In this document: in pieces, positions 22,741 through 54,000 of the stretch
Layout: each line of letters starts with the position of its first letter
Numbering within the stretch: the first letter of the stretch is position 1
From: a virus
Taxonomy: Duplodnaviria; Heunggongvirae; Uroviricota; Caudoviricetes
IMG/VR virus record: IMGVR_UViG_3300033121_001642
Location: 1 to 64,000 of that record
Length of the DNA: 64,000 nt
Direction: 5' to 3' (one strand)
Notes under the pieces: model-generated
What the model saw: only the letters and a program-made list of their open reading frames with translations
The model's database searches: none
Told to the model about the DNA's origin: nothing
Made by a program: the position numbers and the translations under genes

Positions 22741-22779
22741 TCCAACAATCCCCTGCTCGAAAGGGCGGGGGGATTGCTT

Positions 22780-23235: not shown

Positions 23236-24246
23236 ATGCTCAAAATTCGGTCACTAGAACTATCAAACTACGCAGGTTTCAATAAGCGAAGCGTTTTTAG
23301 ATTTACATATAACAACGGTTCTTATAAGCCTCTTTGCGTATTCTTTGGACCAAATGGTTGCGGAAAGAGTACAGGTCTTAATGCTATCGCTGTCCTTTCT
23401 AGAGCCAAAGCGTATTCAAAAAGAAAGAAAGACGAGGAAAACCTGCTTCTAAGGAAGATGCAATTTCATCCAGATTACGATCCAAACTATGCTGGTTTTA
23501 CAAAGTACAAAGAAGATATGGAAATGATTGCTATATTTGAAAACCAGGTTGGCGAAGAGCTTATTGTTCATATCAAAGACGACGATGTTATAAGAAACGA
23601 TCTTGCAAGTCTTGGCTCTGAAAACGTTGTTTTCATTGACGCAGACCATCCTATAAACAATAACAAGTTTCAAATACCGTCCGAGAGAATTGAACTTTTT
23701 CTTGAACTTGCAGAGGCGATATACGGATATAAATGCTTTGTTGAAAAACCTGTCTCGGCTACAGGTGTTGAAGCAGGTAGCGACTCTCTCAAAGAAATCA
23801 TAAGCGTTTATGCGAATAACTATGAAGCTATTACTTCTTCTGAATCCAAACCTACGGTTTCAAAAGAAGAGATTTACTCTCATCTTTCCGACCATAAAAA
23901 GGCCGAACTTTCATTCTACCAGGATTTTGTAATTCAAAAGGGAGAAGTTAAGGTTCATTATAAGTCAATGAGCGCAGGCGAGAAGAAAATCGCAACACTT
24001 CTTAGAAATCTTTGCGACCCTGCTGTTATTGACAAAAGCGACATTGTTCTGGTTGATAATATAGAGATGCATGTATATTTCAAGAGGCATGTAAAAATGC
24101 TAGAGAAGATACTGGAAAAGTTTCCAACTAAACAGTTTATTGTGACAACTCATAGTAGTCTTATGATTGATCACGTGAAAAGTAAGTTTGGAGATAGCTG
24201 TCTATTCGATATACCAATCATCAAGGGTCAGCCTCTTGTTGATTGA
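23236..24246 (+). CDS. ABC-type (AAA_21/SMC-like) ATPase
   Basis: Walker A GPNGCGKST; signature-like SAGEKK; Walker B IVLVDNIEMH; H-loop TTHS. Confidence 0.8.
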   Translation: MLKIRSLELSNYAGFNKRSVFRFTYNNGSYKPLCVFFGPNGCGKSTGLNAIAVLSRAKAYSKRKKDEENLLLRKMQFHPDYDPNYAGFTKYKEDMEMIAIFENQVGEELIVHIKDDDVIRNDLASLGSENVVFIDADHPINNNKFQIPSERIELFLELAEAIYGYKCFVEKPVSATGVEAGSDSLKEIISVYANNYEAITSSESKPTVSKEEIYSHLSDHKKAELSFYQDFVIQKGEVKVHYKSMSAGEKKIATLLRNLCDPAVIDKSDIVLVDNIEMHVYFKRHVKMLEKILEKFPTKQFIVTTHSSLMIDHVKSKFGDSCLFDIPIIKGQPLVD

Positions 24247-24821
24247 GTATTCACATGGAAGAAAACAAGTCAAGATTCGACATTCTCTCCCAGAAGCTAA
24301 GCGAGTTTTGTTTTGCTTGTAAAGATATTTTCTTAAGCAGAAACAAGATTTCATTAGAAACTTCACGAAAAAACATGGTTACAAAAGTCTTTACTCCCAA
24401 AGAAGGCTCTTGTAAACCTTTTGTTTTCTTAGTTGCAAGTTCTTACTTTGACACAAAGAGAATGATTGAAGTTGTCGCCGCTTGTTTGAAAGTTGCAGGC
24501 AAAGAAGTCGAAACTCCAATGAATATTTCTAAGGAGTTTGTTGATAGACTTGCTGAACATATCTCGCAAAACGACCATTTAATTGTTCGGCTTTTGGAGA
24601 ACTCAATTGTTCTTGTTTCTAATAGACTTGAGTTTCAAGTTTTTGACGTTACAGGAGTTGACCGCCCTTCAAAAGAAACACTTACCCGTTCGTTCTGTTT
24701 GAACCTGGCATTTTGCGGTAAGATTGTTACTAACAATCTTGATAGCTACATAGTTAATGATTACGGAATAGTCAATATCGAAACGCTGGCAAACGCAGAC
24801 AAGGTTATCAATGGCAAATGA
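24243..24821 (+). CDS. hypothetical protein, translationally coupled to the ATPase (4-nt overlap)
   Basis: ORF only. Confidence 0.55.
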   Translation: MSIHMEENKSRFDILSQKLSEFCFACKDIFLSRNKISLETSRKNMVTKVFTPKEGSCKPFVFLVASSYFDTKRMIEVVAACLKVAGKEVETPMNISKEFVDRLAEHISQNDHLIVRLLENSIVLVSNRLEFQVFDVTGVDRPSKETLTRSFCLNLAFCGKIVTNNLDSYIVNDYGIVNIETLANADKVINGK

Positions 24822-25734
24822 ACCTCTAAACGGATGGGGCAAGAACTGTTTGCCTCAATACATAACCGAAGGCAATGTTCGTTATGAACTTGCCTTTAAT
24901 GATGTTGACAACATTGAAGACGGGTATCGGAAGCTACCTCTTGGCTTTGATGTTTCTTGTTTTGGCATTGCCCTTCATAAGGACAATATTTCTACGCATA
25001 TCAATAAAGACTGCAATACCGGATGTTTCTTTGTTCCGTATATTGAAATACAGACCAAAGAGGAACTTGCTCGTTGCGTCAGCAGGCTTGCGGCTCGTCT
25101 TGGCGATGAAGTTTCTAAAATCGAAAAGACTGATAGCCCAACATTGAAGATCATTGTTTCAAAATATGTTGACGAAAAAGGTAATCGCAATTTCGCTATT
25201 GGCGGAACAAATCTCAAACCCAAAAATGAACTAATTCACAAACTAAATGTACAGACCATGCTTTGCGAGCCAATCAAAGTTCAAGATGACGAGTCTTGGT
25301 TTGCTGTTATTGCTGATATGGAAGATCCATATGAAACTCAAACCTTGAGAGTTCATAGAGAATCTATTTTAGATTTTGAAAAACGCAAACTAACAATCGA
25401 CAACAAAAACAAGCATGTATTGAGTTTGCTGCCTAAAGATTCAACCTTTTTTGGCAAGCATCTTGTTGGAGGCTCTTCTCAGAACTTCTATAATCCAAAG
25501 AAGCAAGTGGAAGGTTGTATTTATGGCCTATCTGTAATGAGAGCGTCTTCTGAAAATGAAGTAAACACGATACTTCGCCAGCTTGTTGAGTCTTTCAGGA
25601 ACCTGACGGGTTGCTGCTTTGCTGAGGCTATTGTTCTCTCCCAGGAACATTCTGGGGAAATTTGCGATATCAGCATGGCCGTCTATCAATCAGATATTCC
25701 ATACCTAAGAGAAGACGAAGAGGTTGATTTTTGA
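24811..25734 (+). CDS. hypothetical protein, third gene of the ATPase cassette (overlapping start)
   Basis: ORF only. Confidence 0.55.
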   Translation: MANEPLNGWGKNCLPQYITEGNVRYELAFNDVDNIEDGYRKLPLGFDVSCFGIALHKDNISTHINKDCNTGCFFVPYIEIQTKEELARCVSRLAARLGDEVSKIEKTDSPTLKIIVSKYVDEKGNRNFAIGGTNLKPKNELIHKLNVQTMLCEPIKVQDDESWFAVIADMEDPYETQTLRVHRESILDFEKRKLTIDNKNKHVLSLLPKDSTFFGKHLVGGSSQNFYNPKKQVEGCIYGLSVMRASSENEVNTILRQLVESFRNLTGCCFAEAIVLSQEHSGEICDISMAVYQSDIPYLREDEEVDF

Positions 25735-25764: not shown

Positions 25765-26271
25765 ATGAGACCCAAAGCAATCTATGCGGCAAGCCTTGAC
25801 CCTATTACTGCGGGTCATCTCTGGCTAATCAATCAGGGAACTCAACTTTTTGAAGAGCTTGTTGTTTGCATTGCGGTAAACCCCAACAAAGTTGGCAGGT
25901 ATCTCTTTTCTGTTGAAGAGAGAATCGAAATGACCAGGATTTGTGTTCCTCCGACTGTCAAAGTAATGGCAATTGGTCCGAACTACCTGGTTGATTTCGT
26001 GAAACAAGAAAAAGCAACTCACCTCTTGAGAGGCGTTCGAAATGCCGAAGATTTCTCCGTTGAGTCAACAATGGCTGAAATCAACCGTAGAATGGCTTTA
26101 GATAGAGGCGTTGCCGTCGAAACAGTTATATTGCAGCCGCCGCATGATCTCTCAATCGTTTCGAGCAGTTTTGTGAAAAGCTTGATTGGCTACGACGGAT
26201 GGCAGAAAGAGATAAGGAAATATGTTCCTGAGCATGTTGCGATTGCTCTTGAGGGGAAGGTGAAGAAATGA
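25765..26271 (+). CDS. coaD: phosphopantetheine adenylyltransferase (CoaD/PPAT) homolog
   Basis: KAIYAASLDPITAGHLWLI (T/HxGH nucleotidyltransferase motif); LLRGVRNAEDFSVESTMAEINR matches CoaD RGLRxxxDFEYExQxAxxNR; SIVSSSFVKSL matches ISSSLVKEV. Confidence 0.7.
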   Translation: MRPKAIYAASLDPITAGHLWLINQGTQLFEELVVCIAVNPNKVGRYLFSVEERIEMTRICVPPTVKVMAIGPNYLVDFVKQEKATHLLRGVRNAEDFSVESTMAEINRRMALDRGVAVETVILQPPHDLSIVSSSFVKSLIGYDGWQKEIRKYVPEHVAIALEGKVKK

Positions 26272-27014
26272 GAGATTTCACAAAGATGGCAGATAAGAGA
26301 TTAACTCCCGATATTGGGATGGATTATCTCTTTTACATCTATGACAGAGCAATCAACGCAAGATCAAGTCTTTCTGCTCTTGTTCAAACCAGGGCAAACT
26401 TTGATACTCTTGTTGCGAAATACGCAACTCCAGTTTCTGAGGAGCCTCATGTTGCTCGTCAATATCACGACTTCAACCATGTCATTGAGGGTGTAAAAGA
26501 TATACTCTCAATTGAAAGCGATTGCGATTGTTCTGAGGGATCAATCGACGACGTTTTGTTGGCCTGGTTCTATCATGATTCAATCTATCGCTTAAATCCA
26601 AAGACAACAACCAATGAATCCGAAAGCGCCTGGTACGCTCTTGAGGATCTCGTTGGCATGGGTTTCTCTGCGGAAAGAGCAGGAAGAGTTCACGATCTTG
26701 TTATGTGGACAAAACATGACAAGAACCCTCCTGAAGCGGATTATGAAGCGAACTTAATTGTTGATATAGACTTATTAAGAATCGCTTCAACGCCTGTTGA
26801 AACTTTCTTTGGACGAACCGCAATGGTTCGCAAAGAGTTTTCCTTTATTGACAATAAGACCTGGACCGAAGGTAGAATAGCCTTCTGGAAGGGTTTTTTG
26901 CAGAGGAAAAACGGCAGGGTTTTCAGAACAAGCCATTTTGAACACTTGAACAATATTGCAATCAGCAATATTGAGAAAGAAGTCTTTAGCCTGGAAAGGG
27001 GCATGTTCCTATAA
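26268..27014 (+). CDS. hypothetical protein, possibly HD-type phosphohydrolase-like; coupled to the coaD homolog (ATGA overlap)
   Basis: H..HD-like spacing (YHDFNH; FYHDSIY; DIDLLRIA) - weak. Confidence 0.5.
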   Translation: MRDFTKMADKRLTPDIGMDYLFYIYDRAINARSSLSALVQTRANFDTLVAKYATPVSEEPHVARQYHDFNHVIEGVKDILSIESDCDCSEGSIDDVLLAWFYHDSIYRLNPKTTTNESESAWYALEDLVGMGFSAERAGRVHDLVMWTKHDKNPPEADYEANLIVDIDLLRIASTPVETFFGRTAMVRKEFSFIDNKTWTEGRIAFWKGFLQRKNGRVFRTSHFEHLNNIAISNIEKEVFSLERGMFL

Positions 27015-27025
27015 GGAGATAAGAA

Positions 27026-27229
27026 ATGGGACGAGAAAAGGAATTTGAAGACATCGAGGACTCGTTTGAAACAGAAGAAGACGACGACCTTGATCTTGAC
27101 GATGATGAGGACGAGGACGAAATCGACGACGACGAAGAAGATGAAGAGTTTGACGACGATGAAGAGTACGAAGAAGATTACGAAGACGACGACGATTTCG
27201 ACCTTGACGACGACGATGACGAGTTCTAA
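27026..27229 (+). CDS. hyper-acidic small protein (67 aa, ~75% Asp/Glu)
   Basis: MGREKEFEDIEDSFETEEDDDLDLDDDEDEDEIDDDEEDEEFDDDEEYEEDYEDDDDFDLDDDDDEF. Confidence 0.6.
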   Translation: MGREKEFEDIEDSFETEEDDDLDLDDDEDEDEIDDDEEDEEFDDDEEYEEDYEDDDDFDLDDDDDEF

Positions 27230-27233
27230 ATTG

Positions 27234-27260
27234 AACCCCGCTGCTTGGCGGGGTTTTCTT
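27234..27260 (+). terminator. rho-independent terminator (CCCCGC/GCGGGG stem, TTTTCTTTGG)
   Basis: Read directly. Confidence 0.75.
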
Positions 27261-27262
27261 TG

Positions 27263-27879
27263 GTGAAAAACTGGCCGAGTTCGTTTGTATATTCCGAAAG
27301 AGTGAATTGAACGATAAGCAGCCTTCTGTAGTCGGAACGCAGAAGGCGAATGAACAAGAGTATTCGAGACTCTTCTTTCTTCTCGAATAGGTTTCCCCTC
27401 TTTGGCCTCTGTTGTAAAGGGGGTTACGCTCTAAAAGAGCGGTCTTTGCTGAGAATTCCGACTTCTACAGCATTGTCTTGGAATCCCGCAAGGGATAGCT
27501 GCCTAACAGGCTTTGCCTTTTCACCTGTTGGCGTAGGCGAAAACAAGACGGTCTGACTGAATGAGAACTAAGTCTTAACGCCGACCTTAAAAGATCAACT
27601 TAGTAACCGTTTCGGCGGATTCAGTCGCTTTCGCTTTCCTTTTAGGGATGCGTTGGCGGCTGAAAAGGTTGTTGCGCAGCGCAATTAAGTTGTTATAGCG
27701 CATTATAAACAACTCTTCTATATACTGATACGGATTTGCGAAGCAAAGACGTATCACCGAGCGTAGCGAGGAAAAAGCTGATAACGTTCCAAACTCCCCC
27801 AGCCCAATGAAAAGGTACAGTTTTAGAGTGCCGAAACCTGCTTCCAAAATTGAAATTTTCTAACTAAGGATTTGATAGA
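27263..27879. other. 617-bp non-coding, relatively GC-rich region with several short hairpins; candidate structured RNA or regulatory hub
   Basis: No convincing ORF; hairpin TTCGAGA..TCTCGAA near 27362-27386; composition differs from flanks. Confidence 0.4.
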
Positions 27880-28323
27880 TTGAATATTGAAGACGTACAA
27901 CTCATGCAAATACCTTCAGAAATACTTCGACAGAAGTGTGTTGAAATTGAGTATTCCGAAGATCTAAAACCATTTGCTGACAAGATGTTGTCTATCATGC
28001 TTGCTAATAAAGGTGTTGGATTAGCAGCGAATCAGGCAAATATTCCCTGGAGAATGTTTGTAATGAAAACAGAGAAGATGAAGAAGCCAAAAACCTTCAT
28101 CAATCCAGTTATTCTTTACGAGTGCGTGCCTTACAAAGATACCGAAGGCTGCCTATCCTGTCCTGATGTCAAAAAAGAAATTATTCGAAACAGGTATGTC
28201 CTCATTGAGTATATTAACTATGAGGGTAAAAAAGTAAAAGAGCATCTAAGAGATTTAGAAGCTCGTTGCGCTCAACATGAAATTGATCACTTAAACGGTG
28301 TTCTTATCGTAGATAAGACTTAA
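27880..28323 (+). CDS. def: peptide deformylase
   Basis: Motif 1 GVGLAANQ, motif 2 EGCLS, motif 3 QHEIDHLNG; TTG start with TAAGGA RBS (alternative ATG 27907). Confidence 0.85.
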   Translation: MNIEDVQLMQIPSEILRQKCVEIEYSEDLKPFADKMLSIMLANKGVGLAANQANIPWRMFVMKTEKMKKPKTFINPVILYECVPYKDTEGCLSCPDVKKEIIRNRYVLIEYINYEGKKVKEHLRDLEARCAQHEIDHLNGVLIVDKT

Positions 28324-34810: not shown

Positions 34811-34907
34811 ATCAGCCTAAATATAACGGACTGCTTTCGAATACAAAGATAGTGCTTTTGTAGTCTTGTATACTTGATTGTAGTTGACACAAAGAAGGAG
34901 TCAATTG

Positions 34908-35717
34908 ATGATTAGTGAAGAATCAGTTAGAGATAAGTGGGAAGAGTTTGTTATAATTCGCAAGAACAAACAAGATCCACATTATATAAAAGCAAGAAAT
35001 TCCTTACTTGAGATTTATTATCCACTCGTAACAAAAGTGGCAGAGAGAATGCACAAGAAGATAAGAGAAGTCGATATCGACGACCTTGTTGCTTGGGGCA
35101 CGGACGGTTTGTTTCATGCTGTTGAAAGGTTTGACCCGTCTCTCAAGAATAAGTTCGAAACCTTTGCAATACATCGCATAAAAGGTTCTATTCTTGACAA
35201 TATTCGTCAGGTTGATTGGGTTCCACGTCTTGTTAGACAGCGATATTCTAAAATACAAAAAGCGAAACAAGTTCTTGAATCAGAACTTGGACGAACTCCA
35301 ATCCACGAAGAGGTTGCCGAGTATATGGGTATATCGCTAGATGAGTATATAGAGATTAGCTCAAAAGCTACTCCGGTAAGCTGTATTAGCATGAATGCTG
35401 GTCGTTCTGAAGATTCTGATTCAGGGGAAGAAATACAAATAGAAAGCATAATAATCAATTCAGAAAAACCAGACAACAACGTTCTTCGTGAAGAGATGTT
35501 CAAGAAACTCATGGGTAAGAATTTTATTCCTCTTGAGAGAAAAATCATTCACATGCACTACTACAACAATATGACGATGAAAGAAATTGCAAAAGAGACT
35601 GGTTACAGCGAATCCAGGATTAGCCAGATGCATTCAAAAATTCTTGAACGATTGCAAAGAAAAGTAAAGCTCAACCCCAACTACATGAAGGGTCTTGAGG
35701 CTATACTTCAGTCTTGA
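34908..35717 (+). CDS. sigma-70 family sigma factor (group 3/4-like; regions 2, 3 and 4 present)
   Basis: Region 2 LVAWGTDGLFHAVERFDP..FETFAIHRIKGSILD; region 4 HTH MTMKEIAKETGYSESRISQMHSKILERL; AAGGAG RBS. Confidence 0.85.
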   Translation: MISEESVRDKWEEFVIIRKNKQDPHYIKARNSLLEIYYPLVTKVAERMHKKIREVDIDDLVAWGTDGLFHAVERFDPSLKNKFETFAIHRIKGSILDNIRQVDWVPRLVRQRYSKIQKAKQVLESELGRTPIHEEVAEYMGISLDEYIEISSKATPVSCISMNAGRSEDSDSGEEIQIESIIINSEKPDNNVLREEMFKKLMGKNFIPLERKIIHMHYYNNMTMKEIAKETGYSESRISQMHSKILERLQRKVKLNPNYMKGLEAILQS

Positions 35718-35728
35718 AGGAGCGAACC

Positions 35729-36268
35729 ATGAGGGTTTACGTTGGCGACATCACTAAGGTCGAGGGTATAGACGTTATCGTGAACGCCGCAAACGGCATT
35801 GGAGTCATGGGAGCGGGAGTGGCGGGCGCTATTGCTCGTTCAGCAGGTACAAGTACCGAACAGAATGGCGTCAATATCAGAACAATTGTGGCTGATGTTG
35901 TCGAAAAAGAGGGTCCATTTGATGTTGGGGACGTTTACGTCTCTGACGCAGGACTTTTGAAACGAAGAGGAGTGAAAAAAATCTACCATGCGGTCACAAT
36001 GAAGTACCCTGGTGGACAAACTTCTTTAGGCACGATACCCTCTCTTTTGACGAGGGTTTTTGAAACAGCAATCGCAAATGGTGAAAACTCGATAGCTTTT
36101 GGAGGCCTAGGATGCGGTATCGGAGGTCTCAGTAAATCTGACGTTGCCAGAGAAATGGCGCATGTTGCTGAAGCCTATAACGGAAGAATCAAAATCGAAG
36201 TTGTAGACATGAATCAAGAGTTCGTAGACGAATTCAAAAAGAACCTGAGCATTCCGATCGAGACGTAG
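35729..36268 (+). CDS. Macro domain (ADP-ribose binding/processing) protein
   Basis: VIVNAANGIGVMGAGVAGAI ... GGLGCGIGG. Confidence 0.75.
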   Translation: MRVYVGDITKVEGIDVIVNAANGIGVMGAGVAGAIARSAGTSTEQNGVNIRTIVADVVEKEGPFDVGDVYVSDAGLLKRRGVKKIYHAVTMKYPGGQTSLGTIPSLLTRVFETAIANGENSIAFGGLGCGIGGLSKSDVAREMAHVAEAYNGRIKIEVVDMNQEFVDEFKKNLSIPIET

Positions 36269-36272
36269 CAAC

Positions 36273-36896
36273 ATGGTAACTCAATCTTCAATCACAATGC
36301 CGACTCTCGTTTTGAACAAGAGTTGGACTCCTGTTTCAATTTGCACTGCAAAGAAAGCAATTGCCAAGACAATGCTTGGTCTTGCTCAAATTCTTGATCC
36401 TGAGAGTTACATATTGTACAATTTTGAGGATTGGATGACTTTACCAGTCCGAGAAGGAGAAAGAATTATCAGGACTTCTAGAACTGAAATTCGAGTACCT
36501 GAAATTGTTGTGCTTTCAGAATACGAGAGACTTCCACAAAGAGAAGTCAAACTAACTCGTCGAAATCTTCTGGTTAGAGATAACTACACCTGTCAATACA
36601 CAGGCAGAAGAATCTCAATGGATACCGGAACTATTGACCATGTTATTCCAAGATCAAGAGGAGGCCTAAGCACGTGGGATAACCTGGTTATGTGTTGCTT
36701 GGAAGTTAATGCTAAAAAAGCCGATAGGACTCCAGACGAGGCAGGTCTCAAGCTTTTAAAGAAGCCTGAGAGGCCAAAGTGGAGTCCTGTTTACTCTCGT
36801 TTTGCAAGACTTGCTTCGTCAAACGTTCCGTCATCCTGGGCTCAGTTCGTCAAGGTTGAAGGAAATCCGTTTGGGGCAATAGATGCAGCGACGTAG
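36273..36896 (+). CDS. HNH endonuclease
   Basis: CQYTGRR..DHVIPRSRGGLSTWDNLVMCC. Confidence 0.8.
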   Translation: MVTQSSITMPTLVLNKSWTPVSICTAKKAIAKTMLGLAQILDPESYILYNFEDWMTLPVREGERIIRTSRTEIRVPEIVVLSEYERLPQREVKLTRRNLLVRDNYTCQYTGRRISMDTGTIDHVIPRSRGGLSTWDNLVMCCLEVNAKKADRTPDEAGLKLLKKPERPKWSPVYSRFARLASSNVPSSWAQFVKVEGNPFGAIDAAT

Positions 36897-37566
36897 AATC
36901 AGGTATTCGTCAGTCAAACAAAGGGGTGATGCTCGTAAGTGGTTGGGAAAGTTCCCTGATTGTCCAGTTTTTATACTGGGCAACGGGCCTTCTCTCAACG
37001 ACGAAGACATCACCCCTTTATCTAATTATTTGACCATAGGCATTAACAGATCTTTTTATAAACTTGATTCAACAATTCTTATGTGGCAGGACTCTAGCCT
37101 TTGGTATACAGAGCGAAAGAAGCTATCAGAAATAAAAGCTATCAAGTATTGTACCGCTCACGCAGATCCAGAAAATCGTTTCTATCATTTTAAGATTAGT
37201 CCTGGTGGTTTCGGACTACCAGAGACGGTATCAAATCTAAAAGGCAGCGGATCAACGTCGCCCTTGGCTGTTCAGCTTGCTTATTTAATGAGTTGTAATC
37301 CGATAATTCTACTTGGCTGCGATTGTAAACCAAGAGACGGCGAAAGCGATTTCTATGGTAATAATAAGTTTCACAATCAAAAAACAATGTCTCAGTGTTA
37401 TGTAGGTCTTTCTTGGATTAAGAATTTGCACGAAAGCGGCAAGAGAACAATTATTAGTTGCTCTGATAATGATTTGTTTCCCAGGCAATCTCTTTCTTCG
37501 ATTTTGTCTTCTATAGATACAAAGCATAAACAAAACAGAGAGTATTGGAATCAATTCTTGTTATGA
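36883..37566 (+). CDS. GNGPS-motif protein (PF01973 MptE-like/DUF115 or GT42-like fold), tandem paralog 1
   Basis: FILGNGPSLND ... ILLGCDC. Confidence 0.6.
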   Translation: MQRRRIRYSSVKQRGDARKWLGKFPDCPVFILGNGPSLNDEDITPLSNYLTIGINRSFYKLDSTILMWQDSSLWYTERKKLSEIKAIKYCTAHADPENRFYHFKISPGGFGLPETVSNLKGSGSTSPLAVQLAYLMSCNPIILLGCDCKPRDGESDFYGNNKFHNQKTMSQCYVGLSWIKNLHESGKRTIISCSDNDLFPRQSLSSILSSIDTKHKQNREYWNQFLL

Positions 37567-38216
37567 TTTTTAGGTCGAGATATAAGTTTCCTATAAAGCT
37601 TTGGAAGAAAAAGTTCGTCGGCGAGACAGCTTTTATACTAGGCAACGGTCCTTCTCTTCTTGAAAACGATCTTGGCCTGCTCAAGAACTATTTCACGATA
37701 GGAACAAATCGGGCATACAAAATCGTTTCTCCCTGCATACTTATGTGGCAGGACGAATCTTTGTATGAAGATTGTTTTCGTGACTTAGTTACTCTTGCTT
37801 GCGCGAAATTAACAAGAAAAGAAATAGACAAAGAAGACCTGTTTACTCACTTTAGAATAGAACGGGGCGGTTTTTCTTTTGGAGAAGATCCGGAAGTTTT
37901 ACATGGCGGAGGCTCGACAGCGTGTCTTGCTATACAGCTTGCGGTCTCGATGGGTTTTTCTAAAATCGTTCTTCTTGGTTGTGATTGTTCTTACCGAGGA
38001 GAACAAACCGATTTTTATGGAAAGAACAAAAACCATAGTACGAATACTTTGGCTAATTTTTCTGCCGCAATGGAATGGGTTAGCCGTGAATCACCGATTC
38101 CTATAAGGAATTGTGGCGATGCACCATACTGGTCCAAGATTTCTTTACAGGCAGCTATTGACGATTTTGAACCCAATAAACTTTCTAGACTAGAGTGGCT
38201 GAATAGGTTGACGTAA
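37545..38216 (+). CDS. GNGPS-motif protein, tandem paralog 2
   Basis: FILGNGPSLLEND ... VLLGCDC; ~35% identity to the upstream gene by eye. Confidence 0.6.
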   Translation: MESILVMIFRSRYKFPIKLWKKKFVGETAFILGNGPSLLENDLGLLKNYFTIGTNRAYKIVSPCILMWQDESLYEDCFRDLVTLACAKLTRKEIDKEDLFTHFRIERGGFSFGEDPEVLHGGGSTACLAIQLAVSMGFSKIVLLGCDCSYRGEQTDFYGKNKNHSTNTLANFSAAMEWVSRESPIPIRNCGDAPYWSKISLQAAIDDFEPNKLSRLEWLNRLT

Positions 38217-38217
38217 A

Positions 38218-39372
38218 ATGAACGAACAACAAACAGAAAGTAACAGATTCATTATTGACACTAAAGCTGTCGAGAAGTTTTTGTCTATTCTCGATAAAAA
38301 TGATGATATTTCAATTATTTGCCACGACCAACCAGATCCCGATTGTCTTGCTTCGGCTTTTGCTATTCAGGCTCTTGCTCAATCAAGAGGTAAAAATGCT
38401 GTCATTTATTATGGCGGAGAAATTCCATATACTCAAAACAGCGTCATGATGAATGTTCTTAACATTTCAGCGATTAAGCTAGAGGTTGACGAGGATAATG
38501 AAGAGGAAGAATTAACTCAACAAATAAAAGACAATATTAAGAAAAGCTCCATTATCGTCGTTGATACGAGCGCTGGTTTTGGAAAAGAAAATAATACCGG
38601 GATCTTTGGCTTTCTTGAAAAAGATAGGAAGCCAGACGCCATTATAGATCATCACACAACAAGTCCTTATGTAGACTGTCCTGTGTATATAAACAAGCAG
38701 TACGGCGCTTGTTCGACCATATTGCTTGAAATATTGACGGTATTGGATATTCCAATAAATAAAGGTCTTGCAACGGCTCTCTATCTTGGTATTTCGACCG
38801 ATACTGCGGATCTTAAATCAGAAGGAACCATGCAGAATGATATTGACGCAATGGACTTTCTCAGATCCATCATGGATGTTGAGCTTCTTAGAAAAATTTA
38901 TGACTATCCAAAACCCCTTGCGTTGCTTGAGCTTAGAAGAAAAGCATATTCAAATTTTTGTATTAGCGGCAACAATTTGACCATATCAAACGTTGGTATT
39001 GTTAATCCTCAACAAAGAGCTTTGCTTGCGAAACTTTGCGAAGAAATGCTTGAGGTTGAATCAATAGATAGTGCCCTTGTTATGGGGCTTGTTGACGAAG
39101 GATTTGATAAGCCTAAGTTTTTGATAGCGTCTTTCAGAACAGGGGTTCTTGGTATCAATGTTTCTCAGTTCATTCAAAAGATATTTGGTAAAAAATATGG
39201 CGGCGGACGGCGTGGAGCCGGCGCAGCAAAAGTTCCTCTTGACGATAAGATATCTTCAGTGATTGATTTTGCAAAAAGGCAGGAAAACGGAGTTGCTCGT
39301 ATTGAGCAACTTGTTGCTCCCTTTTTTGAATATTACGCCGACAAGGCGAGAACAGAAAAGAGTAACATATAA
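38218..39372 (+). CDS. DHH/DHHA1 phosphoesterase (NrnA-like)
   Basis: Motif I CHDQPDPDCLAS; DTS; IDHH; DHHA1 GGGRRGAGAA. Confidence 0.75.
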   Translation: MNEQQTESNRFIIDTKAVEKFLSILDKNDDISIICHDQPDPDCLASAFAIQALAQSRGKNAVIYYGGEIPYTQNSVMMNVLNISAIKLEVDEDNEEEELTQQIKDNIKKSSIIVVDTSAGFGKENNTGIFGFLEKDRKPDAIIDHHTTSPYVDCPVYINKQYGACSTILLEILTVLDIPINKGLATALYLGISTDTADLKSEGTMQNDIDAMDFLRSIMDVELLRKIYDYPKPLALLELRRKAYSNFCISGNNLTISNVGIVNPQQRALLAKLCEEMLEVESIDSALVMGLVDEGFDKPKFLIASFRTGVLGINVSQFIQKIFGKKYGGGRRGAGAAKVPLDDKISSVIDFAKRQENGVARIEQLVAPFFEYYADKARTEKSNI

Positions 39373-45042: not shown

Positions 45043-48000
45043 ATGCCATTTAAGTTTTTTGCTAGTTTTGAGTTTACTGGATCGCCAACATCTGAGCAGT
45101 TTAGGTTTGCTTATGGCATGGGCGTTATGAAAAACGTTCAAAGTCCCATATCCAATTATCAAACTCTAACAATTAATAACGACGCAATTAATCAGCATAT
45201 TGATAACGCTATTGCTCAAGGATATGAAGCTATTTGTTGGGACGAGAAAAACCCGAGATTTTATCTTTGGAATTCATCAATGACAGAGGCGGAAAAAGAC
45301 GCCGCTCTTGATTGTTTGGTTGAAATATATACAAAATCTAAGGCAAGAGCTATTCAGCAAGGGAGGCCCGATCTCAAAATTGGTTGGTGCGACATTCCGG
45401 GAGGTCATCCAAATAGCTATAACGCACCGTTGCAGTATACTCAAAGTCCAAGCAATCCTACATATCAGTCCAATTATCAATCATGGATTTCTTGGATGAG
45501 TAGGCTTTCACAGAGATACGTTAATGGGCAATATATCTCTTCTCCATTTTCAAATTGTTGTGATTTTGTTGCTCCAAGTTTGTATATATTTTATGGCAAT
45601 AGTCAATCTCTTATTGATGATTGGAAGATTTTTGCAGGTGTAACCCTTGATCAAATGAGGCTTAGGATAGCCAATGGGAAGCCTATTTATTCTTTTTGTT
45701 CATTTTCGTTTCATCCATCTTTTGTATATGTTGGAACAATGGCAAGCTATAATAATATGTCTCAAATGATTGCTTTATCTAAGCAAAAAGCTGACGGCAT
45801 AATTATGTACGGCGGGGCCAATGCAAGTTATAGATATGACAATTGGTTTTGGAGACCGTCTGGAGCGAACGAGGCAGCAGACTTAACTACTTGGAGAACC
45901 GTAACGAATGGTTCGTTTTCTATAACCATTGCCAATGTAAAACTAAAAATACAAAACATTAACACTTCGTCGGCGGTGTCAATGTCTCAGGTTGCCTCAG
46001 TTTTACAATCTGCAATACAGTCAAAAATTAGTTCTAGACCAAATCCTGCATATGACGGATATTATCCATTTCCTTTAGGGACCGTTACCGTAACATGGTC
46101 TTCTTCCCAAAAAGGCTTCTTGTTCAATATGACAACAAATGGATCTTCTACCCCAATGCCTCCAAACTTCCACAGAGGCTTGTTTACTATTGAGTCAAAA
46201 AATGCTTGGGGAGGGAATATAAGCGGAACGGATTTGGCAATTAGCCAGTTTATAGGAGTTCCAACAACAAATACCGCGGGGTTGCCTGGTAACACACAGT
46301 GGTTATATGGCGGAACTCAAAATAATATGGAATGGAGAGATTATGCTGAAGATCAAGACTGGTGGCAGTCTTATAGCGAAGCGTCTCTGGAAAATTCAGA
46401 GCTAAAAGATTTCAAATATTTTATATCTTCCGCCTATGCGGGTCAGCCTTCTTTTACTAGCTTTGAAACTTATGGAATTAATTTTATAAAAACAGGAGGA
46501 ATAACTCCGTTTGTTGAGAGTTACTCTCAAGCCGCAACAACACTTCTTACAAGTCCTTTAACTATTAGCGACAGCAACATTAATGCTGGAATTCTAGCGT
46601 ATCTTGATCCGTCTCTTGGTAGTAACCAATCATTTTATTATGCATATGATTTAGAGCAGTTTCAATCATATATTGATCCAACATCAAATTCTGATACTGT
46701 TATAGATAACATGCTAGAGTCGTTTAATAGAGCTTATACAAGAACAAAAGAACTTCTTGCGGTTCGTGGTATTAGCGATGTAAAGATAGGTTTTTATTTC
46801 AATCCAAACTTCAAAAGCTATTACGATCCTGTTCTTTACTGGTATACAAAAGGTAATAGTTTAGATTACACAACAAACTATAATACTTGGGTTTCTAAGT
46901 TTAGAAGAGTTAATCTTAGAAAATCAGGCGCAACTTATTATACAAAGAAGTTTTCAGATTATACCGATTTTATAACTTGTGAAGTTTGTCCTTTTTACGG
47001 AGAGCAAGACCCTCTTGATGATATTTACTATAAAGAGAACATTATCCAAGCAGCAAGATATACCGCAGCAAATAAGCCTCTATATGTTTTTTTGAATCCT
47101 TCTTTTCATTTTTCCACTCCTTGGTGTTCAAAGCTCGTAAGCGGAAATTACATGATCAAGATGCTTTCTTGGTGCAAAAGAATTGCTGACGGAGCTATTG
47201 TTCGGTCTGTTTATAGACCAAGCTATAGAAGGGCAAGAATGCGTCATTTTATGACAGCCTCAGGAGGCCCTCCTGCCGTTCCTTCTAAAACTCTTGCTGA
47301 TTGGCAGTCTATCACAAATGGTTGTTTTAATTATTTCGCGCAAGGATATACTAGATCGATTACAGACATTAATTTTTCAATAGCAACGAGCATTGGAGGG
47401 TTGGAATCAACGAGTGTTGCAAACATTATTGAATCAGCAATTAATGCTGATTTGTACTATATAAACAATTTCTTTCCAACCACAACCGCATATCCAAGCT
47501 TGTCATATTCAAGACCATATGAAGTCGGAAGCGTTGTTGTTTCTTATCAATCAAGCGTTTCCAACAACACCCCATTATCTTCAACTCAGGTTCCGTGTTT
47601 TGAGTTTACTTACACAACCCCTTCTATTCAGTCCCCTCCCGATCATAGCTCGTCTGAGGGGCGAGAATTTTTATATTGCTATGGTTATTCAGGATCTTTG
47701 CCTATTGGAGGAACAGATATAGGTTCCGCTCTTTGGATAGGAACATATTATAATACAGATCAAGAATATGATAGCAATGTTTATGCTGGTCAAGATTTTG
47801 ATTCAAATGAATGGTCTAATGGGTGGGTCGTTGGAAATGATTGGTGGCACGCTTTCTCCTCAATGGCAACTTCAGATAAATACACAAGAGATAGATCTAT
47901 AGCTGTTATGGAGAATTTTGGTTCTACAACATCCAATGGCATTATTAGGAGTTTTTCTGGCATGCCAACTGTTCCTCAATTAAAAGCTCAATACAATATT

Positions 48001-51000
48001 ATTAGAGCATATACCGCTTATACTTCCGATACGTCTTGGTCTCAATATACAGATCCATTTATTGACGCAAAGCTTGATGCTTTTATTGCTGAAAAAGCAG
48101 ATATATTTGTTTGGGATATCGAAGGCTCTTATTGCAATGTAACAGTAAATAGCCCAGATTGGGTTTACGGAGTCTCAGAATCTGAAGTTGACGCTAACCT
48201 TGAGCAATTCAAAAGTCTGTATACAAGAACGAAAATTAGAGCCGGATTGAAGGGCATATCAAATATTAAGGTTGGTTTTTATGGAACACCATTTACAGCC
48301 AATAGTTATTATGGAGCTTATTATTGGGGAAGCGGCGGCCTGGCCCACTCTGTTCCTGGTTCTGTTTTTGACGCAAGTATGAGAAGAATTAATCAGAGAT
48401 ACCAAAATGGGGTATATGTTACAACTCCTTTTGAAGATTATAATGACTTTTTTGCGCCTTCATTATATCCGCTATACCAGGGCTGGACAGCGGCAGAGAC
48501 AAATGAGATTTATGTTGTAAAAGGCTATATTGAAAAGATTATAGAAGTATTTGGAAAATCTAGACCCATATATCCATTTGTTCTTCCAACGTTTTCTGAA
48601 CAAGAAGGAGTAAATGCATTTTTGGGCATGGCTCAAAACTCAACTCTTTCTCAAGGAATGTATACTCAAATATTAGATTCAGGTGCTGACGGACTTATTA
48701 TGTGGTATTCAAAACAACCAAGCTTGTATACAAGTAATCATATATTTATTCCAAGCGTAAATAAAACTCTTTCTGATTGGCAATCTATCACGAATGGTTG
48801 TTTTATTATTGCTGTTGACGGTTATCCCGTTAAGGTTGAAGGTATAAATTTTTCAACAGCGGCAAGCATGACCGATGTTGCTCAAAAAATACAAGACGGA
48901 TTAAACAACAAAATAGCCACAATAACAATAGTTACAGCGTCAGACGGCTCTACATGGAATTCTGGATCTCCAACATCTCCTAGAAACATAGGAAATGTTA
49001 CAGTTGCTTGGGACTCGTTAAATCTTAGGTTTGTAATGAACACCACGAGAGGAACCTTGAAATCACCTAGCGGAATGGTGTTCCCGCCAGATTTTGACAA
49101 AGGATATTTTGTTATTAAGTCATGGACAGCCTGGACCGGAGGTTCTTCTCCTGGTTTTGATATAGGAGTTGACGAGTGGATAGGTCGTCACGACGTTTGG
49201 ACCGATTTGACAAGCACAAGAACAGACGCGGTTGGTGAGTTCGGAAAATGGATCGAGGACTCTCGTTGGTGGAATTCTTATAAGTCAATAGCTCTTGGAT
49301 CTTATGGAACAAATATATCCAACAGAATACTCCCCTTTATAAACGTTGTAACACCCTCTTCTGGAGATGCTCCTTTCACCGTTCATGTTGATGCCATTAA
49401 TTCTTATTTCAATGGAGTTGATATACAAGACTGCACATTCGAATGGGATTTTGGAGACAGCAATCCTCCTGTTTCTGTTATTTCAAGAACCATGATTTCA
49501 GATCCAAGAGTTGATTTTGATTTCAATTCTGACGGGATCGCTCATAGAAAAACGTCGCTATCTAGTAAACAAAGAGGCATTAATGCCGCTTATACTTATT
49601 ATCACGACAATGGCGGTAGTCCGTTTACAATAACTTTAAAGATATGGCACAATGGCGCTGTTAGCTCCACCGTTTCTACAACCGTTGTTGTTTCAAGCCC
49701 AACAGTGGACTCTTATCCGACTAACAATCCTAATAATTGGGTTTTATTGAAGGTCGTTCCAGAGCAGATTTCTCCTCCTGCGAATACCTTTCAAACAATA
49801 GACGCCGCTATTTCTTGGATTAATTCAAATAGAACTAACGGCAAGGCAATTATTGAACTCTTGCCAGGATATAGCGGTTCTGGTAATTTGAATTTTCCTA
49901 TTAATGGAAAAATTACAATAAGTAAACCAAATATCTTGATTAGAGCCTCAACAGTATATTCAACACAGAAGCCAAGAATCGTTGCCAAAAATGGCTCTTT
50001 TACTAGAAGTTCTCCAACGGCTTTGTTTGAGCTAGCGGCAACTGCGTATAATGTTATTTTCCAAGACATTCAATTTGGAGCGTCTGCTAATGTTGCAGGA
50101 GATCCTGGTGGTTTTGAACAGGGAAGCGATAATACTTCTAACCTTATAGGATGTGTTGTAAAATCTCCGGCTTCTGCCACCACAAACACAAGTAATATAA
50201 CGTTTTCGAACTGTACGTTTAGAAATCTTTATCAAGCCGTTACGACATCGCACTTTGTAACTGGTGTATATTTTAATCAATGTCATACGTCAACAACAAA
50301 GATCAAGAGCTACGACTTTATAGGTTGTAATTTTGTTATCAACAAAGGAGTCCATGCAACCTTGAGTGGTTTTGAGGCTGGTGGCTCATTGGCTCTTGCT
50401 GTAAGAACACCGGCTGACTCTCCAATTAACTTTGGAGCAGATAGCAGTCTTGCAGAAAAACTTTCTATGAATTTTTGTAGAATAGATCACTTTGCAACAT
50501 TTCATGGATCTTTAATATCTTCTTCAGGCCCTGTCAATTTATACAACGCAAGATACGTCACTGTTTATGGTTCTATTTTACAAGATGGTTCGAACAATTT
50601 AAACGATGTTTTTTCAGTTAGGTTTGATTCAAATGAAATGTTAGCTGGTGGAACTAAAAGCTTGTTTGTTGTAACAGCACCTTCTTCGGATATAACTATA
50701 GTTAATAATATTTTAAGGCCAAACTCGTATACGGCCGGTTCCAGAATAAACTCTGGTTTATTTGAGTTTGGCGGATCTTATGGTCTTATAAATAATCTTA
50801 AAATAGGAAACAACACAGCAATAGCTGATGTGAATACAAGCTATCAAAAAGCCTTCTGGAATTTTACCACAGCAACAGGCGTTGGTTTGAGTAATATTGA
50901 ATTTGTAAATAATCTCAATACAGAGCATGGTGGTTATTGTATATCTAGATGGATTTCTGTTGGAAATAATGTAGGCCAGTTTGGCAAATTTAGTAATAAT

Positions 51001-54000
51001 ATATGGCCGCAGAGATTTGGTTTTATGGATTTTGCTTTTATTAATGGAACTATAAAAACATGGGATCAATGGGTGTCTGCTGGATACGAAGACAGTCCGT
51101 CTCAGTTTGAGGTTATAACGGTAAGTTTGCAGTCAGTTTACAAATATAAGCTTGATTCTGCAACCAACACTCCTTTGGCGACGACATCTATTTTATATCC
51201 TGCGGCTTGTAAGGATTTTAATGACGAGTTTAGAGGGTCGTTTAATTGCGGTGTTGGAGCAACAAAACCATATGCTCTTTCTTATTCAACGGCTGCGTTC
51301 ACGGTTTCGCCAAATGTTACAACAAGAACAAGAACAACAGAGCCAGGATGGACACCTCCGTCAGGTTGCCAAAATGCCTTTGTTGCCATTACAGATCCTG
51401 TTACAAACACAATTGATAATAATTTTGCAATAACTCAGAAGCCGGTAATCAAAAAGCTTTCAGCTAATGTTTTAGAAATGGTTGATTTTATTCCAGTTGG
51501 TTATTCTTCTTCAAGAGCTTATAGAGTAAAGTTTGACCCAAGCGGTAACGCAAATATAATAGATGCGTTCTTTGGAATGCTATGGGAAGGAGGAGTCAAG
51601 AAACTTGGAGCTATTTTTATTAGAAATGATTATGTTGCTTTTTCTATAACAAACATACCTATTGGATCTTATACAACTATTACTGATCTTTTCAATGCGG
51701 TTTCTTCGGCTATAAACACTTTATTTGTTAATAATAACCTTGGCAATCCGTCTGTTATTATAGATCTTTTTGGATGCGGATATCTTTCTCCGTCTTTATT
51801 GGCATTTCCTTCGAGCAGCGTAACGAGCATATACACAACAGGTTCGAGGTGCTACAATGTTTGGACTTTTGCTTCTTTTTCAAACATCACTCTTGGCAAT
51901 TATATTAAAACAACAATATCAGTGACCCCAACCACTGACGGATATGATGCATTAATAACTTACACAAACGACGGCCCGTCTGGAGCGAACGACAGCGTAA
52001 CGGGTGATATAAGACAAAGAATAGGAGTTATTAGGGTTGAAGGTATTCTTTCTGGATACAAAGGTAAACTCTTGCTGACCAATGACGGAACGAGACTTTC
52101 TAATTATGATACTTCATTTATGAACTATTTTGGATCTGGTATTTTGTATCCATTTGATAAGTTTTCTCCTGTTACGGTTGCGATAGGAGAAACATACGCT
52201 GTTGGCGTTTCTCTTTTGTATAATTTTGCAACAAGTCATTTGTATAATCAAGAGTTTATTGGGCAATACGGAGGAGGTATTGTCAATAGACTATCTTGGT
52301 TGACAAATCTCGATAGCGATAATCTTTCTGCCGTTAATGCTGACTGTTTGGCTCGCGGCCAATCTATGCAGGTAACCGTTTCTGTTAGAGTTACTAGAAA
52401 TATTAGAGACTGGGTTAAAACTCTTGCTCCATATAAAGCTTATTTTGCAGCTACATACGGGTCTGTCAATTATATTAAAGACCCTCGCCCTATTCGCCCC
52501 ATAACACCTGCCGCCACCCACAGCGGTCAGCCATTGTATTTTCATGGGCACGAAGATCAAAATAATCAAAACCCAGCCCGTTGGGGTTGGGCTTGGTATG
52601 CTAATAAGATAAAATATCTATATAATACTCTTGGGTACGAAAGATTTTTTATGTGGTGTCCTGCTGGGTTGTACTATAATGGAAACGGAGCGAATTACCC
52701 GTCCATTGTTTTAACGCCATTTTTTGATACAATAGGAAAATTCCCGCACTCTTCTAGCGCAGCAATATCAGATAGTTGTTATACTTTACTTAATAACGTT
52801 TGTGTTCCTGGAACGTTTACTATAAATTCAGATTTGTTTAAGGGAACAATATATATGCTGAGAGACGCAATACAGGAAGTTCCCATGTTTGGTTTCTATC
52901 AAGGATATGGTACTATTGTTCATAAAAAATGGAATCCAGCACGCAGCGATATTGTTGGATTCAAGGACATATCTTCTGCTGAAATTATGAATTATGCAAA
53001 TAATGAATTACACTTAATGTCTTATTATGCAAAAACAAACATGATAGGCCTTGACGCATATGCCTCAGGTACGCAAGACGGGCTTATACAAAACAAAAGA
53101 GCGCTTGATTTTATAGGATACAAATATGACGGGTTGAAACTTCTTGCTGAAAAATCTCTAGAAGACGTAACAAGCATTAATTGTATAAACTATTTGTTCT
53201 CTCCAGAACTTCAATCAGGACCAAATGTTGTTGCAGATTATATTGTTCCTGGACACGAAAGCCTTGCTATGCTTTATCCAAATCTTTCTTGGTCTGATTT
53301 TCCAGCAGGAACATATAATGAAGGTCAAATAAAGAACATGCTTGCGGCTTTTGCAAGATGGGGTTATGTTGTTGGAAGCGTAGATAACGAAATACATTCT
53401 TCTCCAAAATCGTCTCTTGTTGATGCTTCAGTTTTTAACTCTGCTGACATGCGATTTGTTTATGATCAAAAACCTGCAAGCGTTTTGTCTCTTGCAGCCC
53501 CTTCTGGTTTGCAACACAAGATTATTGATGCGGTTGTTAATAATGATTATCCAGACGTTCATCAACAATCAATTATTTTATCATGGAACGCTAATACCGA
53601 AACCGATTTTAGCCATTATGTTGTTTCTAGACCTAGAATAATAAATGGAGAACCAGATTTTGATCTTCCATATCAAGAAAAGCTATATACGAAAAATACC
53701 ATCTTTGTTGATTATCAAGTTTTTCCTGCGAAAACATATTATTATAAAATTGTTGCATATGACGTAGACGGCAATGCTTCTTCTCCAACTTTTTATGAAG
53801 TAACCCATATAGCTGACGATCCAATACTTAATCCACCAAAGAATGTTTCTTCAACAGCTAATATTGGAGATGGCAATATTGTTGTTACATGGGACGCTCC
53901 TTCGTCCGAGTTTGAACCCTCTTCTACCAATAGAGTACCTCCAAAGTTTATTATACAAGGAAGCAGTAGAGCGGCTGATCTTGATAATGAGCTTTTTGAT

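Follow-up and report, generated by a model that had tools for sequence, protein, structure and literature searches.

A jumbo-phage CoaD homologue and its overlapping HD/phosphodiesterase-like partner: a possible two-enzyme module of coenzyme A metabolism

The analysed stretch of 64,000 nucleotides (positions 1 to 64,000 of the IMG/VR record IMGVR_UViG_3300033121_001642; referred to as the window) carries a homologue of phosphopantetheine adenylyltransferase (PPAT, CoaD; open reading frame (ORF) 1), followed by an HD-superfamily protein with a predicted phosphodiesterase (PDE)-like fold (ORF2) and by a hyper-acidic small protein. The three ORFs and the terminator behind them are present as described in the original prediction made from the DNA letters, and the proposed translational coupling of the first two agrees with an ATGA tetranucleotide at 26268–26271, read directly from the sequence, in which the stop codon of ORF1 and the start codon of ORF2 overlap. 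We consider it somewhat more probable than the sum of its alternatives that the core of this operon constitutes a two-enzyme module of coenzyme A (CoA) or 4′-phosphopantetheine metabolism, in which the HD protein works in the pathway of CoaD and CoaE. Taken alone, a phage CoaD is nothing out of the ordinary among the auxiliary metabolic genes of jumbo phages. What makes the finding valuable is the HD partner, whose family of about 10^4 clusters gains a testable link to CoA metabolism with the hydrolysis of phosphopantetheine or CoA phosphodiesters as the working hypothesis.

Sequence comparison places ORF1 in the PPAT family with its catalytic residues conserved. The strong CoaD signature noted in the original prediction is borne out by the NCBIfam coaD equivalog model TIGR01510, which matches ORF1 with 128.2 bits (curated cutoff 103.3; E = 2.6e-37) over model positions 2–154 of 155, and by full-length matches to 34 distinct PPAT sequences of solved structure in the PDB with E values down to 1.7e-22; the Pfam family CTP_transf_like is matched as well. 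The segment DPITAGH of ORF1 aligns with DPITNGH of the E. coli enzyme, and the T/HxGH motif including the catalytic His18 is kept. Of the conserved substrate-binding residues, listed for PPATs in PMC3764209, the alignments show H18, A37, K42, R88, R91, D95, E99, N106, S129, S130 and the SSS motif to be retained in ORF1. From its family membership and the conserved catalytic residues, ORF1 presumably possesses PPAT activity.

Compared to the bacterial PPATs of E. coli (1B6T) and T. thermophilus (1OD6), with which it aligns over the full length at ca. 31–38% identity, ORF1 differs in being phage-encoded, in the substitutions P8A, G9A, L73Y and Y98V, the Pro8-Gly9-Thr10 segment of PPATs reading Ala-Ala-Ser, and in belonging to a distinct subclass. 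The latter is marked by the sequence GHLW after the catalytic histidine and by a Trp-containing three-residue insertion near the C-terminus within the motif LIGxxGWxxEhxKyVP (LIGyDGWqkEirKYVP in ORF1). Both markers are absent from the E. coli and T. thermophilus enzymes and common to many jumbo-phage CoaDs and to the HD-fused or HD-adjacent CoaDs, including bacterial ones. The earlier view that a CoaD is unusual for a phage holds only in part. CoaD matches were found in 63 INPHARED records, some of which look like bacterial contamination, and a search of IMG/VR with only two peptide patterns yielded 62 loci with CoaD relatives, mostly on contigs of 100–536 kb. Moreover, CoaD has already been annotated in Brevundimonas jumbo phages and in phage PhiMa05 (PMC8093824).

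The HD-like spacing of histidines and aspartates originally recognized in the 248-residue ORF2 corresponds to an invariant set of residues, H67, H71, H103, D104, H150, D166 and D168, in 13 close homologues; the positions equivalent to H71, H103-D104 and D166/D168 are also invariant in 40 bacterial members of the family. The family motif YHNxxH ... HD ... DxD is present, and its elements follow each other in the same order as in the metal site of PDEs. The AlphaFold model of ORF2 is all-α and confident (pLDDT 89, pTM 0.87), its predicted fold is HD/PDE-like and its best structural matches are cyclic-nucleotide phosphodiesterases. According to the model and the comparisons below, ORF2 is PDE-like in fold and not a member of the class I PDE family. 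The catalytic domains of PDE2, PDE4, PDE5 and PDE9 share only 12–17% identity with ORF2, which is about 70–80 residues shorter; Pfam PDEase_I is not matched; and in the class I signature, which we take to be HD[LIVMFY]xHx[AG]xx[NQ], the second histidine is a tyrosine in ORF2 (HDSIYRLN). In addition, the genomic links of ORF2 are to CoA enzymes and not to cyclic-nucleotide signalling.

No match of ORF2 to Pfam or NCBIfam models, including HD (PF01966), was obtained at E ≤ 0.1, a family relative (P0075) matching PF01966 weakly with E = 0.003 and below the cutoff, and sequence searches of the PDB with ORF2 and with the family profile gave nothing usable. Existing labels are nevertheless of the same kind, as ORF2 matches phrog_19425 (“phosphohydrolase”) and its close relatives carry the JGI label “predicted metal-dependent HD superfamily phosphohydrolase”. 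The family is large: when 1.8 billion cluster representatives were searched with its profile, 9,675 matched at E ≤ 1e-3, mostly proteins of 200–220 residues, and profiles built separately of phage and of bacterial members match each other with an hhalign probability of 100%. To collect bacterial loci, one genome per species was scanned for DNA encoding W[FY]HDAIYD, using a degenerate pattern; 119 of the resulting 120 loci contain a member of the HD family, and they span Proteobacteria, Actinobacteria, Cyanobacteria, Planctomycetes, Gemmatimonadetes and other groups. In seven actinobacterial loci (L021, L023, L039, L054, L065, L080 and L097, several of them from Kribbella) the HD-carrying ORF is very long, ca. 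550–850 residues by naive ORF calling. The 745-residue representative P0136, named “glyceraldehyde-3-phosphate dehydrogenase (NADP+)” by JGI, joins an HD domain and an aldehyde dehydrogenase domain in one protein.

We assign the HD protein to the pathway of CoaD and CoaE because members of its family form repeated, independent fusions and overlapping gene pairs with these enzymes in bacteria and phages. In the huge phage LR756500 (L008; 462 kb), a 386-residue protein combines an HD domain with a CoaD domain scoring 128.7 bits against the coaD model, and further CoaD-HD fusions are found in protein P0048 and in the viral loci L164, L173 and L184, in the last of which CoaE follows directly. Proteins P0041 and P0155 are CoaD-CoaE-HD triple fusions, P0076 is a CoaE-HD protein of which Pfam detects only the CoaE part, and P0099 joins a CoaE fragment to HD. 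A CoaD-CoaE fusion gene followed by an HD gene with overlapping start and stop codons occurs in the bacterial loci L105 and L019, each accompanied by a divergent TrmB-type regulator, and in the viral locus L177. Finally, CoaD precedes HD with a GTGA overlap in metagenome-assembled genomes of Verrucomicrobiales and Terriglobia (L043, L050).

The association is also visible among the 119 bacterial loci, which were selected by the HD motif only. CoaD lies directly upstream of the HD gene in four of them and 1.3 kb away in one, compared to about 0.06 expected by chance, on the assumption that a genome of ca. 4,000 genes has one coaD and that every gene has two neighbours. With four occurrences CoaD ties as the commonest upstream Pfam family with enoyl-CoA hydratase (four) and SLT_2 (four), followed by NudC-type Nudix (two). 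The HD proteins linked to CoA enzymes do not group together in a neighbour-joining tree but are dispersed through the family; the association therefore arose repeatedly, and it probably reflects the function of the family as a whole. On the viral side, 13 of the 62 CoaD loci from IMG/VR have an adjacent or fused HD gene.

Literature searches for COG4339, for HD-CoaD-CoaE fusions and for a link between HD and CoA returned nothing. The module of CoaD and a PDE-like HD protein and its fusions with CoaE hence appear to be undescribed within the literature searched; phage CoaD as such was known. An architectural parallel is the eukaryotic COASY, a fusion of PPAT and dephospho-CoA kinase, in which the last two steps of CoA synthesis are joined as in the CoaD-CoaE fusions among the relatives of the window. 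In contrast to COASY, the window contains CoaD only, and the prokaryotic and phage fusions add an HD/PDE-like domain that COASY lacks.

Consistent with these data we propose the following scenario. ORF1 would act as a working PPAT, converting 4′-phosphopantetheine and ATP into dephospho-CoA and pyrophosphate, and would thereby give the phage control, in the infected cell, of the last but one step of CoA synthesis, which is normally under feedback control. ORF2 would be a metal-dependent hydrolase of the phosphodiesterase type that shares a pathway with CoaD and CoaE. It might cleave a phosphopantetheine donor at a phosphodiester or pyrophosphate bond, the donor being holo-acyl carrier protein (holo-ACP), another carrier protein, or CoA that is spent or damaged. 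The 4′-phosphopantetheine set free could then be re-adenylylated by CoaD, and CoA would be completed by the CoaE of the host or by a phage CoaE encoded outside the window. We favour a release of 4′-phosphopantetheine because domains joined in one protein as a rule carry out successive steps of a pathway, and because ORF2 has a diesterase fold; the HD enzyme thus probably releases or recycles a phosphopantetheine-containing substrate. The ties of the HD family to CoaD and CoaE suggest a recycling step for CoA or 4′-phosphopantetheine in bacteria and huge phages that is absent from the textbook pathway.

Several observations weigh against this proposal. The 64-kb window yielded neither CoaE nor ACP nor any other gene of CoA metabolism, CoaE having been sought with a weak home-made hidden Markov model of three sequences, and a hydrolase cleaving CoA or dephospho-CoA beside a PPAT could form a futile cycle. 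The four substituted positions of ORF1 are pantetheine or phosphate contacts in PPATs and, judged from the alignments, leave room for an altered substrate or regulation. No HD gene lies within 3.5 kb of many phage CoaDs that belong to the subclass of ORF1, so that the partnership is frequent and not obligatory; the neighbours of these HD-less CoaDs share no theme (UvdE, FolE2, a methylase, RNase H), and the ORF overlapping the CoaD stop codon in Brevundimonas phage Bambus is not an HD homologue, which means that CoaD-HD coupling is not universal among phage CoaDs. Bacterial members of the HD family are mostly stand-alone genes with varied neighbours, and the literature yielded neither an enzyme activity for any member nor a publication on the family. 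The E. coli ACP phosphodiesterase AcpH, which has been assigned to the HD family, and PptH of M. tuberculosis, a metallophosphoesterase and as such a different kind of enzyme, resemble ORF2 in the proposed function only. Homology to AcpH was rejected, as the HD-family profile matches the E. coli protein with an hhalign probability of 0.3%. Both enzymes release 4′-phosphopantetheine from holo-carrier proteins (PMC8557913).

The main rival to phosphopantetheine release is a role of the HD protein in damage control, to which we attach a limited but appreciable probability. The HD protein would then act as a housecleaning hydrolase on damaged phosphopantetheine, on mis-adenylylated products or on dinucleotides similar to diadenosine tetraphosphate (Ap4A) arising from the adenylyltransferase and kinase steps. 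The fusion and adjacency data fit any enzyme of the CoA pathway and hence also this one, and the widespread stand-alone copies in bacteria suit a general repair of metabolites. There is furthermore a precedent in the nadD-yqeK pair of Firmicutes, in which the gene of the nicotinic acid mononucleotide (NaMN) adenylyltransferase NadD lies beside that of the HD-type Ap4A hydrolase YqeK; as in the CoaD-HD pair, a cofactor adenylyltransferase with a HIGH motif is directly followed by a small HD hydrolase. In eukaryotes, a DUF89 phosphatase domain is fused to PANK4. The latter is mentioned as a 4′-phosphopantetheine phosphatase in PMC9633907.

An extension of the proposed phosphopantetheine-releasing scenario is more speculative, and we regard it as rather unlikely in its entirety. 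On this reading, the HD family would make up a so far overlooked third class of phosphopantetheinyl hydrolases or CoA-recycling phosphodiesterases. Jumbo phages would combine it with a PPAT of their own, strip 4′-phosphopantetheine from host holo-ACP or spent CoA for conversion into CoA, and so reprogram the lipid and acyl metabolism of the host. The acidic peptide would separately serve as a polyanionic decoy, either for a DNA-binding protein of the host or for a partner of single-stranded DNA-binding protein (SSB). Should the HD enzyme indeed strip ACP of its prosthetic group, the phage module would represent a new way of taking over the metabolism of the host.

The original prediction had instead considered a non-CoA substrate of the nucleotidyltransferase, as in nucleotide-signal or NAD-related anti-defence, and the results speak against it. 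It is quite improbable that the CoaD-like enzyme adenylylates nicotinamide mononucleotide (NMN) or NaMN, or a phosphate on a nucleic acid or protein, with the HD protein processing the product. The four changed contact positions and the additional Trp-containing motifs of the subclass might be read in this sense. So might the genes that follow the CoaD-CoaE fusion and HD gene on the 72-kb IMG/VR contig L177 (5291–6935), a weak match to calcineurin-like (metallo)phosphoesterases and then an RNA ligase gene, because of which some units of this type possibly act on nucleic-acid ends. However, ORF1 exceeds the curated CoaD cutoff, whereas the NMN/NaMN adenylyltransferase models (NadD, NadR, NadM) stay far below theirs, with NF000842 scoring best (19.9 bits, cutoff 167) and the others reaching 12–17 bits (cutoffs 112–181). 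Furthermore, all catalytic and nucleotide-binding residues are kept in ORF1, in the bacterial subclass members L043 and L050 residue 98 is still aromatic and Gly9 is present, and the CoaD-HD pair co-occurs with a genuine CoA enzyme, CoaE. The repeated fusion and adjacency of the HD family to CoaE as well as to CoaD thus point to CoA metabolism and not to NAD or anti-defence, and neither CoaD nor the HD protein has a match in PADLOC.

Least probable of all is a counter-defence function, by which the HD/PDE-like protein would degrade the cyclic-nucleotide signals of CBASS, Pycsar, Thoeris or type III CRISPR systems and its adjacency to CoaD would be incidental: the structural matches to cyclic-nucleotide phosphodiesterases, the phage origin of the gene and the presence of a Macro-domain gene and a PtuA/AriA-like ATPase in the same window are compatible with it, but the family is overwhelmingly bacterial and stand-alone, is fused to CoaD or CoaE in many lineages and overlaps CoaD start-to-stop in bacteria and phages alike, and ORF2 lacks the second histidine of the class I HDxxH motif (HDSIY) and any PDEase_I or PADLOC match.

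The third gene of the cluster encodes 67 residues, of which 29 are Asp and 20 Glu (73%), close to the three quarters estimated originally. Homologous ORFs of 45–69 residues with 62–75% Asp/Glu occupy the same position in the related loci L001, L003–5, L129, L131 and L133, and a terminator follows the acidic ORF in L001, L003–5 and L129, seen as a conserved GC hairpin with a T-run in L001, L003 and L129. In all relatives checked an AAGGAG sequence is found 7–8 nt upstream of the ATG. Hydrophobic residues (Phe, Leu, Ile), aromatic as well as aliphatic, are interspersed in the Asp/Glu tracts, and the C-terminus reads ...DDDDDEF in the window, L001 and L003–5 and ends with Ile or Leu in L129, L131 and L133. 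A natural deletion in L002 (6700–6775) has removed the acidic ORF and fused the C-terminus of the HD protein to its last codons (...FYDDDECQAPS); the acidic ORF is therefore dispensable. It is also missing from the other CoaD-HD loci, e.g. that of LR756500. Judged by this conservation pattern, the acidic ORF is a real, clade-specific gene outside the conserved CoaD-HD module. An overlapping K/T-rich ORF in the +2 frame (27045–27266) was rejected as a by-product of GAN repeats; codons starting with A are never stops, for which reason a run of GAN repeats keeps this frame open, and a conserved Shine-Dalgarno site and ATG are lacking.

The acidic protein has no family match in Pfam, PHROGs, NCBIfam or PADLOC. 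On its composition only, it is most likely a disordered polyanion that would bind a basic or nucleic-acid-binding protein, and this conserved poly-Asp/Glu mini-protein is an uncomplicated candidate effector of the disordered, polyanionic type. The role of a DNA mimic or decoy suggested originally would be a matter of charge: the acidic protein has an extreme negative charge in common with the anti-restriction proteins Ocr and ArdA. These two are folded and their charge is patterned, whereas a 67-residue protein with 73% Asp/Glu is almost certainly disordered. Acidic disordered Asp/Glu regions can act as DNA charge mimics (PMC10987829, PMC10250230). As a rival to general mimicry of double-stranded DNA, the acidic protein might be a free-standing mimic of the acidic, Phe-terminated tails of SSB-type proteins, competing for the partners of these tails, an alternative we hold to be unlikely. 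Tails of this kind are carried by E. coli SSB (...DDDIPF) and T7 gp2.5. The T7 gp2.5 tail is discussed in PMC10359462 and the SSB C-terminus in PMC7913777. The ...DDDDDEF end and the aromatic and aliphatic residues among the Asp/Glu tracts agree with such a mimic; however, the argument is one of composition and end residue, the terminal Phe is not conserved, and L002 manages without the ORF.

The features of the locus are compiled in Table 1. The starts and stops of the three genes upstream of CoaD, encoding an ABC-type ATPase and proteins of 192 and 307 residues, overlap one another. Because the nearest terminator-like site upstream of CoaD is located only at 22749–22772, the CoaD, HD and acidic genes probably form the end of an operon that opens with these three genes.

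Table 1. Features of the CoaD-HD locus and its upstream genes in the window.
Feature	Position	Strand	Basis or remark
CoaD homologue, 168 aa (ORF1)	25765–26271	+	ORF translation; TIGR01510, PDB PPATs, Pfam CTP_transf_like
HD-superfamily phosphodiesterase-like protein, 248 aa (ORF2)	26268–27014	+	ATG overlaps CoaD TGA
AAGGAG Shine-Dalgarno site of acidic ORF	27013–27018	+	Overlaps stop codon of HD protein; read from sequence
Hyper-acidic small protein, 67 aa, 73% Asp/Glu, C-terminus ...DDDDDEF	27026–27229	+	ORF translation, composition
Intrinsic-terminator-like hairpin, GC-rich 10-bp stem then T-run, closing the operon	27233–27256	+	
ABC-type ATPase	23236–24246	+	Pfam SMC_N/AAA_21; synteny in all relatives; context only
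192-aa ORF upstream	24243–24821	+	Synteny in all relatives; context only
307-aa ORF upstream	24811–25734	+	Synteny in all relatives; context only

The best PADLOC matches of the ATPase are the defence ATPases PtuA, AriA and AbiLi. The 192- and 307-residue proteins have no family match in Pfam or PHROG and no PADLOC match, and the AlphaFold2 model of the latter reaches a pLDDT of 36.5. The region 23236–25734 may represent a phage-borne defence-like or exclusion module. Two insertions were observed among the relatives in this part of the locus. In one branch of the window clade a sulfotransferase gene (Sulfotransfer_3) is inserted upstream of CoaD between the genes for the ca. 180- and ca. 300-residue proteins (L133, 3321–4094; L134, 480–1253); sulfotransferases use 3′-phosphoadenosine-5′-phosphosulfate and release 3′,5′-ADP, the nucleotide moiety also contained in CoA. 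In L001 (3033–3797) a gene with a faint Pfam match to LAGLIDADG homing endonucleases is inserted after the ATPase gene, and the next ORF is shortened to 148 residues compared to 192 in the window.

The window stems from a jumbo phage that has been met in metagenomes only. Its gene content is phage-like, comprising helicases, ribonucleotide reductase, lysozyme, a sigma factor, an HNH endonuclease and a thymidylate synthase (PHROG match; the genes of relatives carry Pfam Thy1), and the phage setting assumed originally is supported by the closest relative, a 333-kb IMG/VR contig (UViG_3300033067_001661) with the same gene block and 94–99% protein identity. Related contigs with this block are 250–370 kb long, one reaching 494 kb, and a 96%-identical relative (L001) lies on an NCBI contig of 248 kb. 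The segment 24000–29000 showed no DNA similarity to INPHARED phages, and no tRNA was found in a scan of the whole window. Two giant ORFs of 3,412 residues (45043–55281) and 1,410 residues (57330–61562) have no PHROG match at E ≤ 1e-5. Relatives whose proteins are as little as about 50% identical preserve the order ATPase, ca. 180-residue protein, ca. 300-residue protein, CoaD, HD, acidic ORF and terminator, the single exception being the deletion in L002; consequently, the CoaD-HD-acidic-terminator arrangement is not due to chance.

Between the terminator and a peptide deformylase gene, located farther downstream in a position kept in the relatives, extends a non-coding stretch of ca. 570 nt (about 27260–27830; + strand assumed). 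It recurs in L001 (6966–7660), L002 (6772–7432), L003 (6939–7680), L129 (6401–7140) and L133 (6476–7140) and is conserved although the flanking proteins of the relatives are only about 50% identical; it contains long invariant blocks, e.g. AGACGGTCTGACTG..AATGAGAG..CTTAACGCCGACCTTAAAAGA. RNAalifold predicts 78 base pairs, 28 of them with compensatory double changes. The Rfam search of the whole window gave no hit at gathering thresholds, and 27200–27900 gave only noise at E ≤ 1. On the predicted folding, the region 27260–27830 is a candidate for a new large structured RNA of jumbo phages, with strand and ends provisional.

Farther downstream, the window encodes a sigma-70-family factor (34884–35717), a Macro-domain protein (35714–36268) and then the HNH endonuclease, followed by two tandem MptE-like proteins (36883–38216) and a DHH-family phosphoesterase (38218–39372). 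Of these, the Macro and DHH proteins might be connected with the metabolism of ADP-ribose or of 3′-phosphoadenosine-5′-phosphate (pAp) and oligonucleotides.

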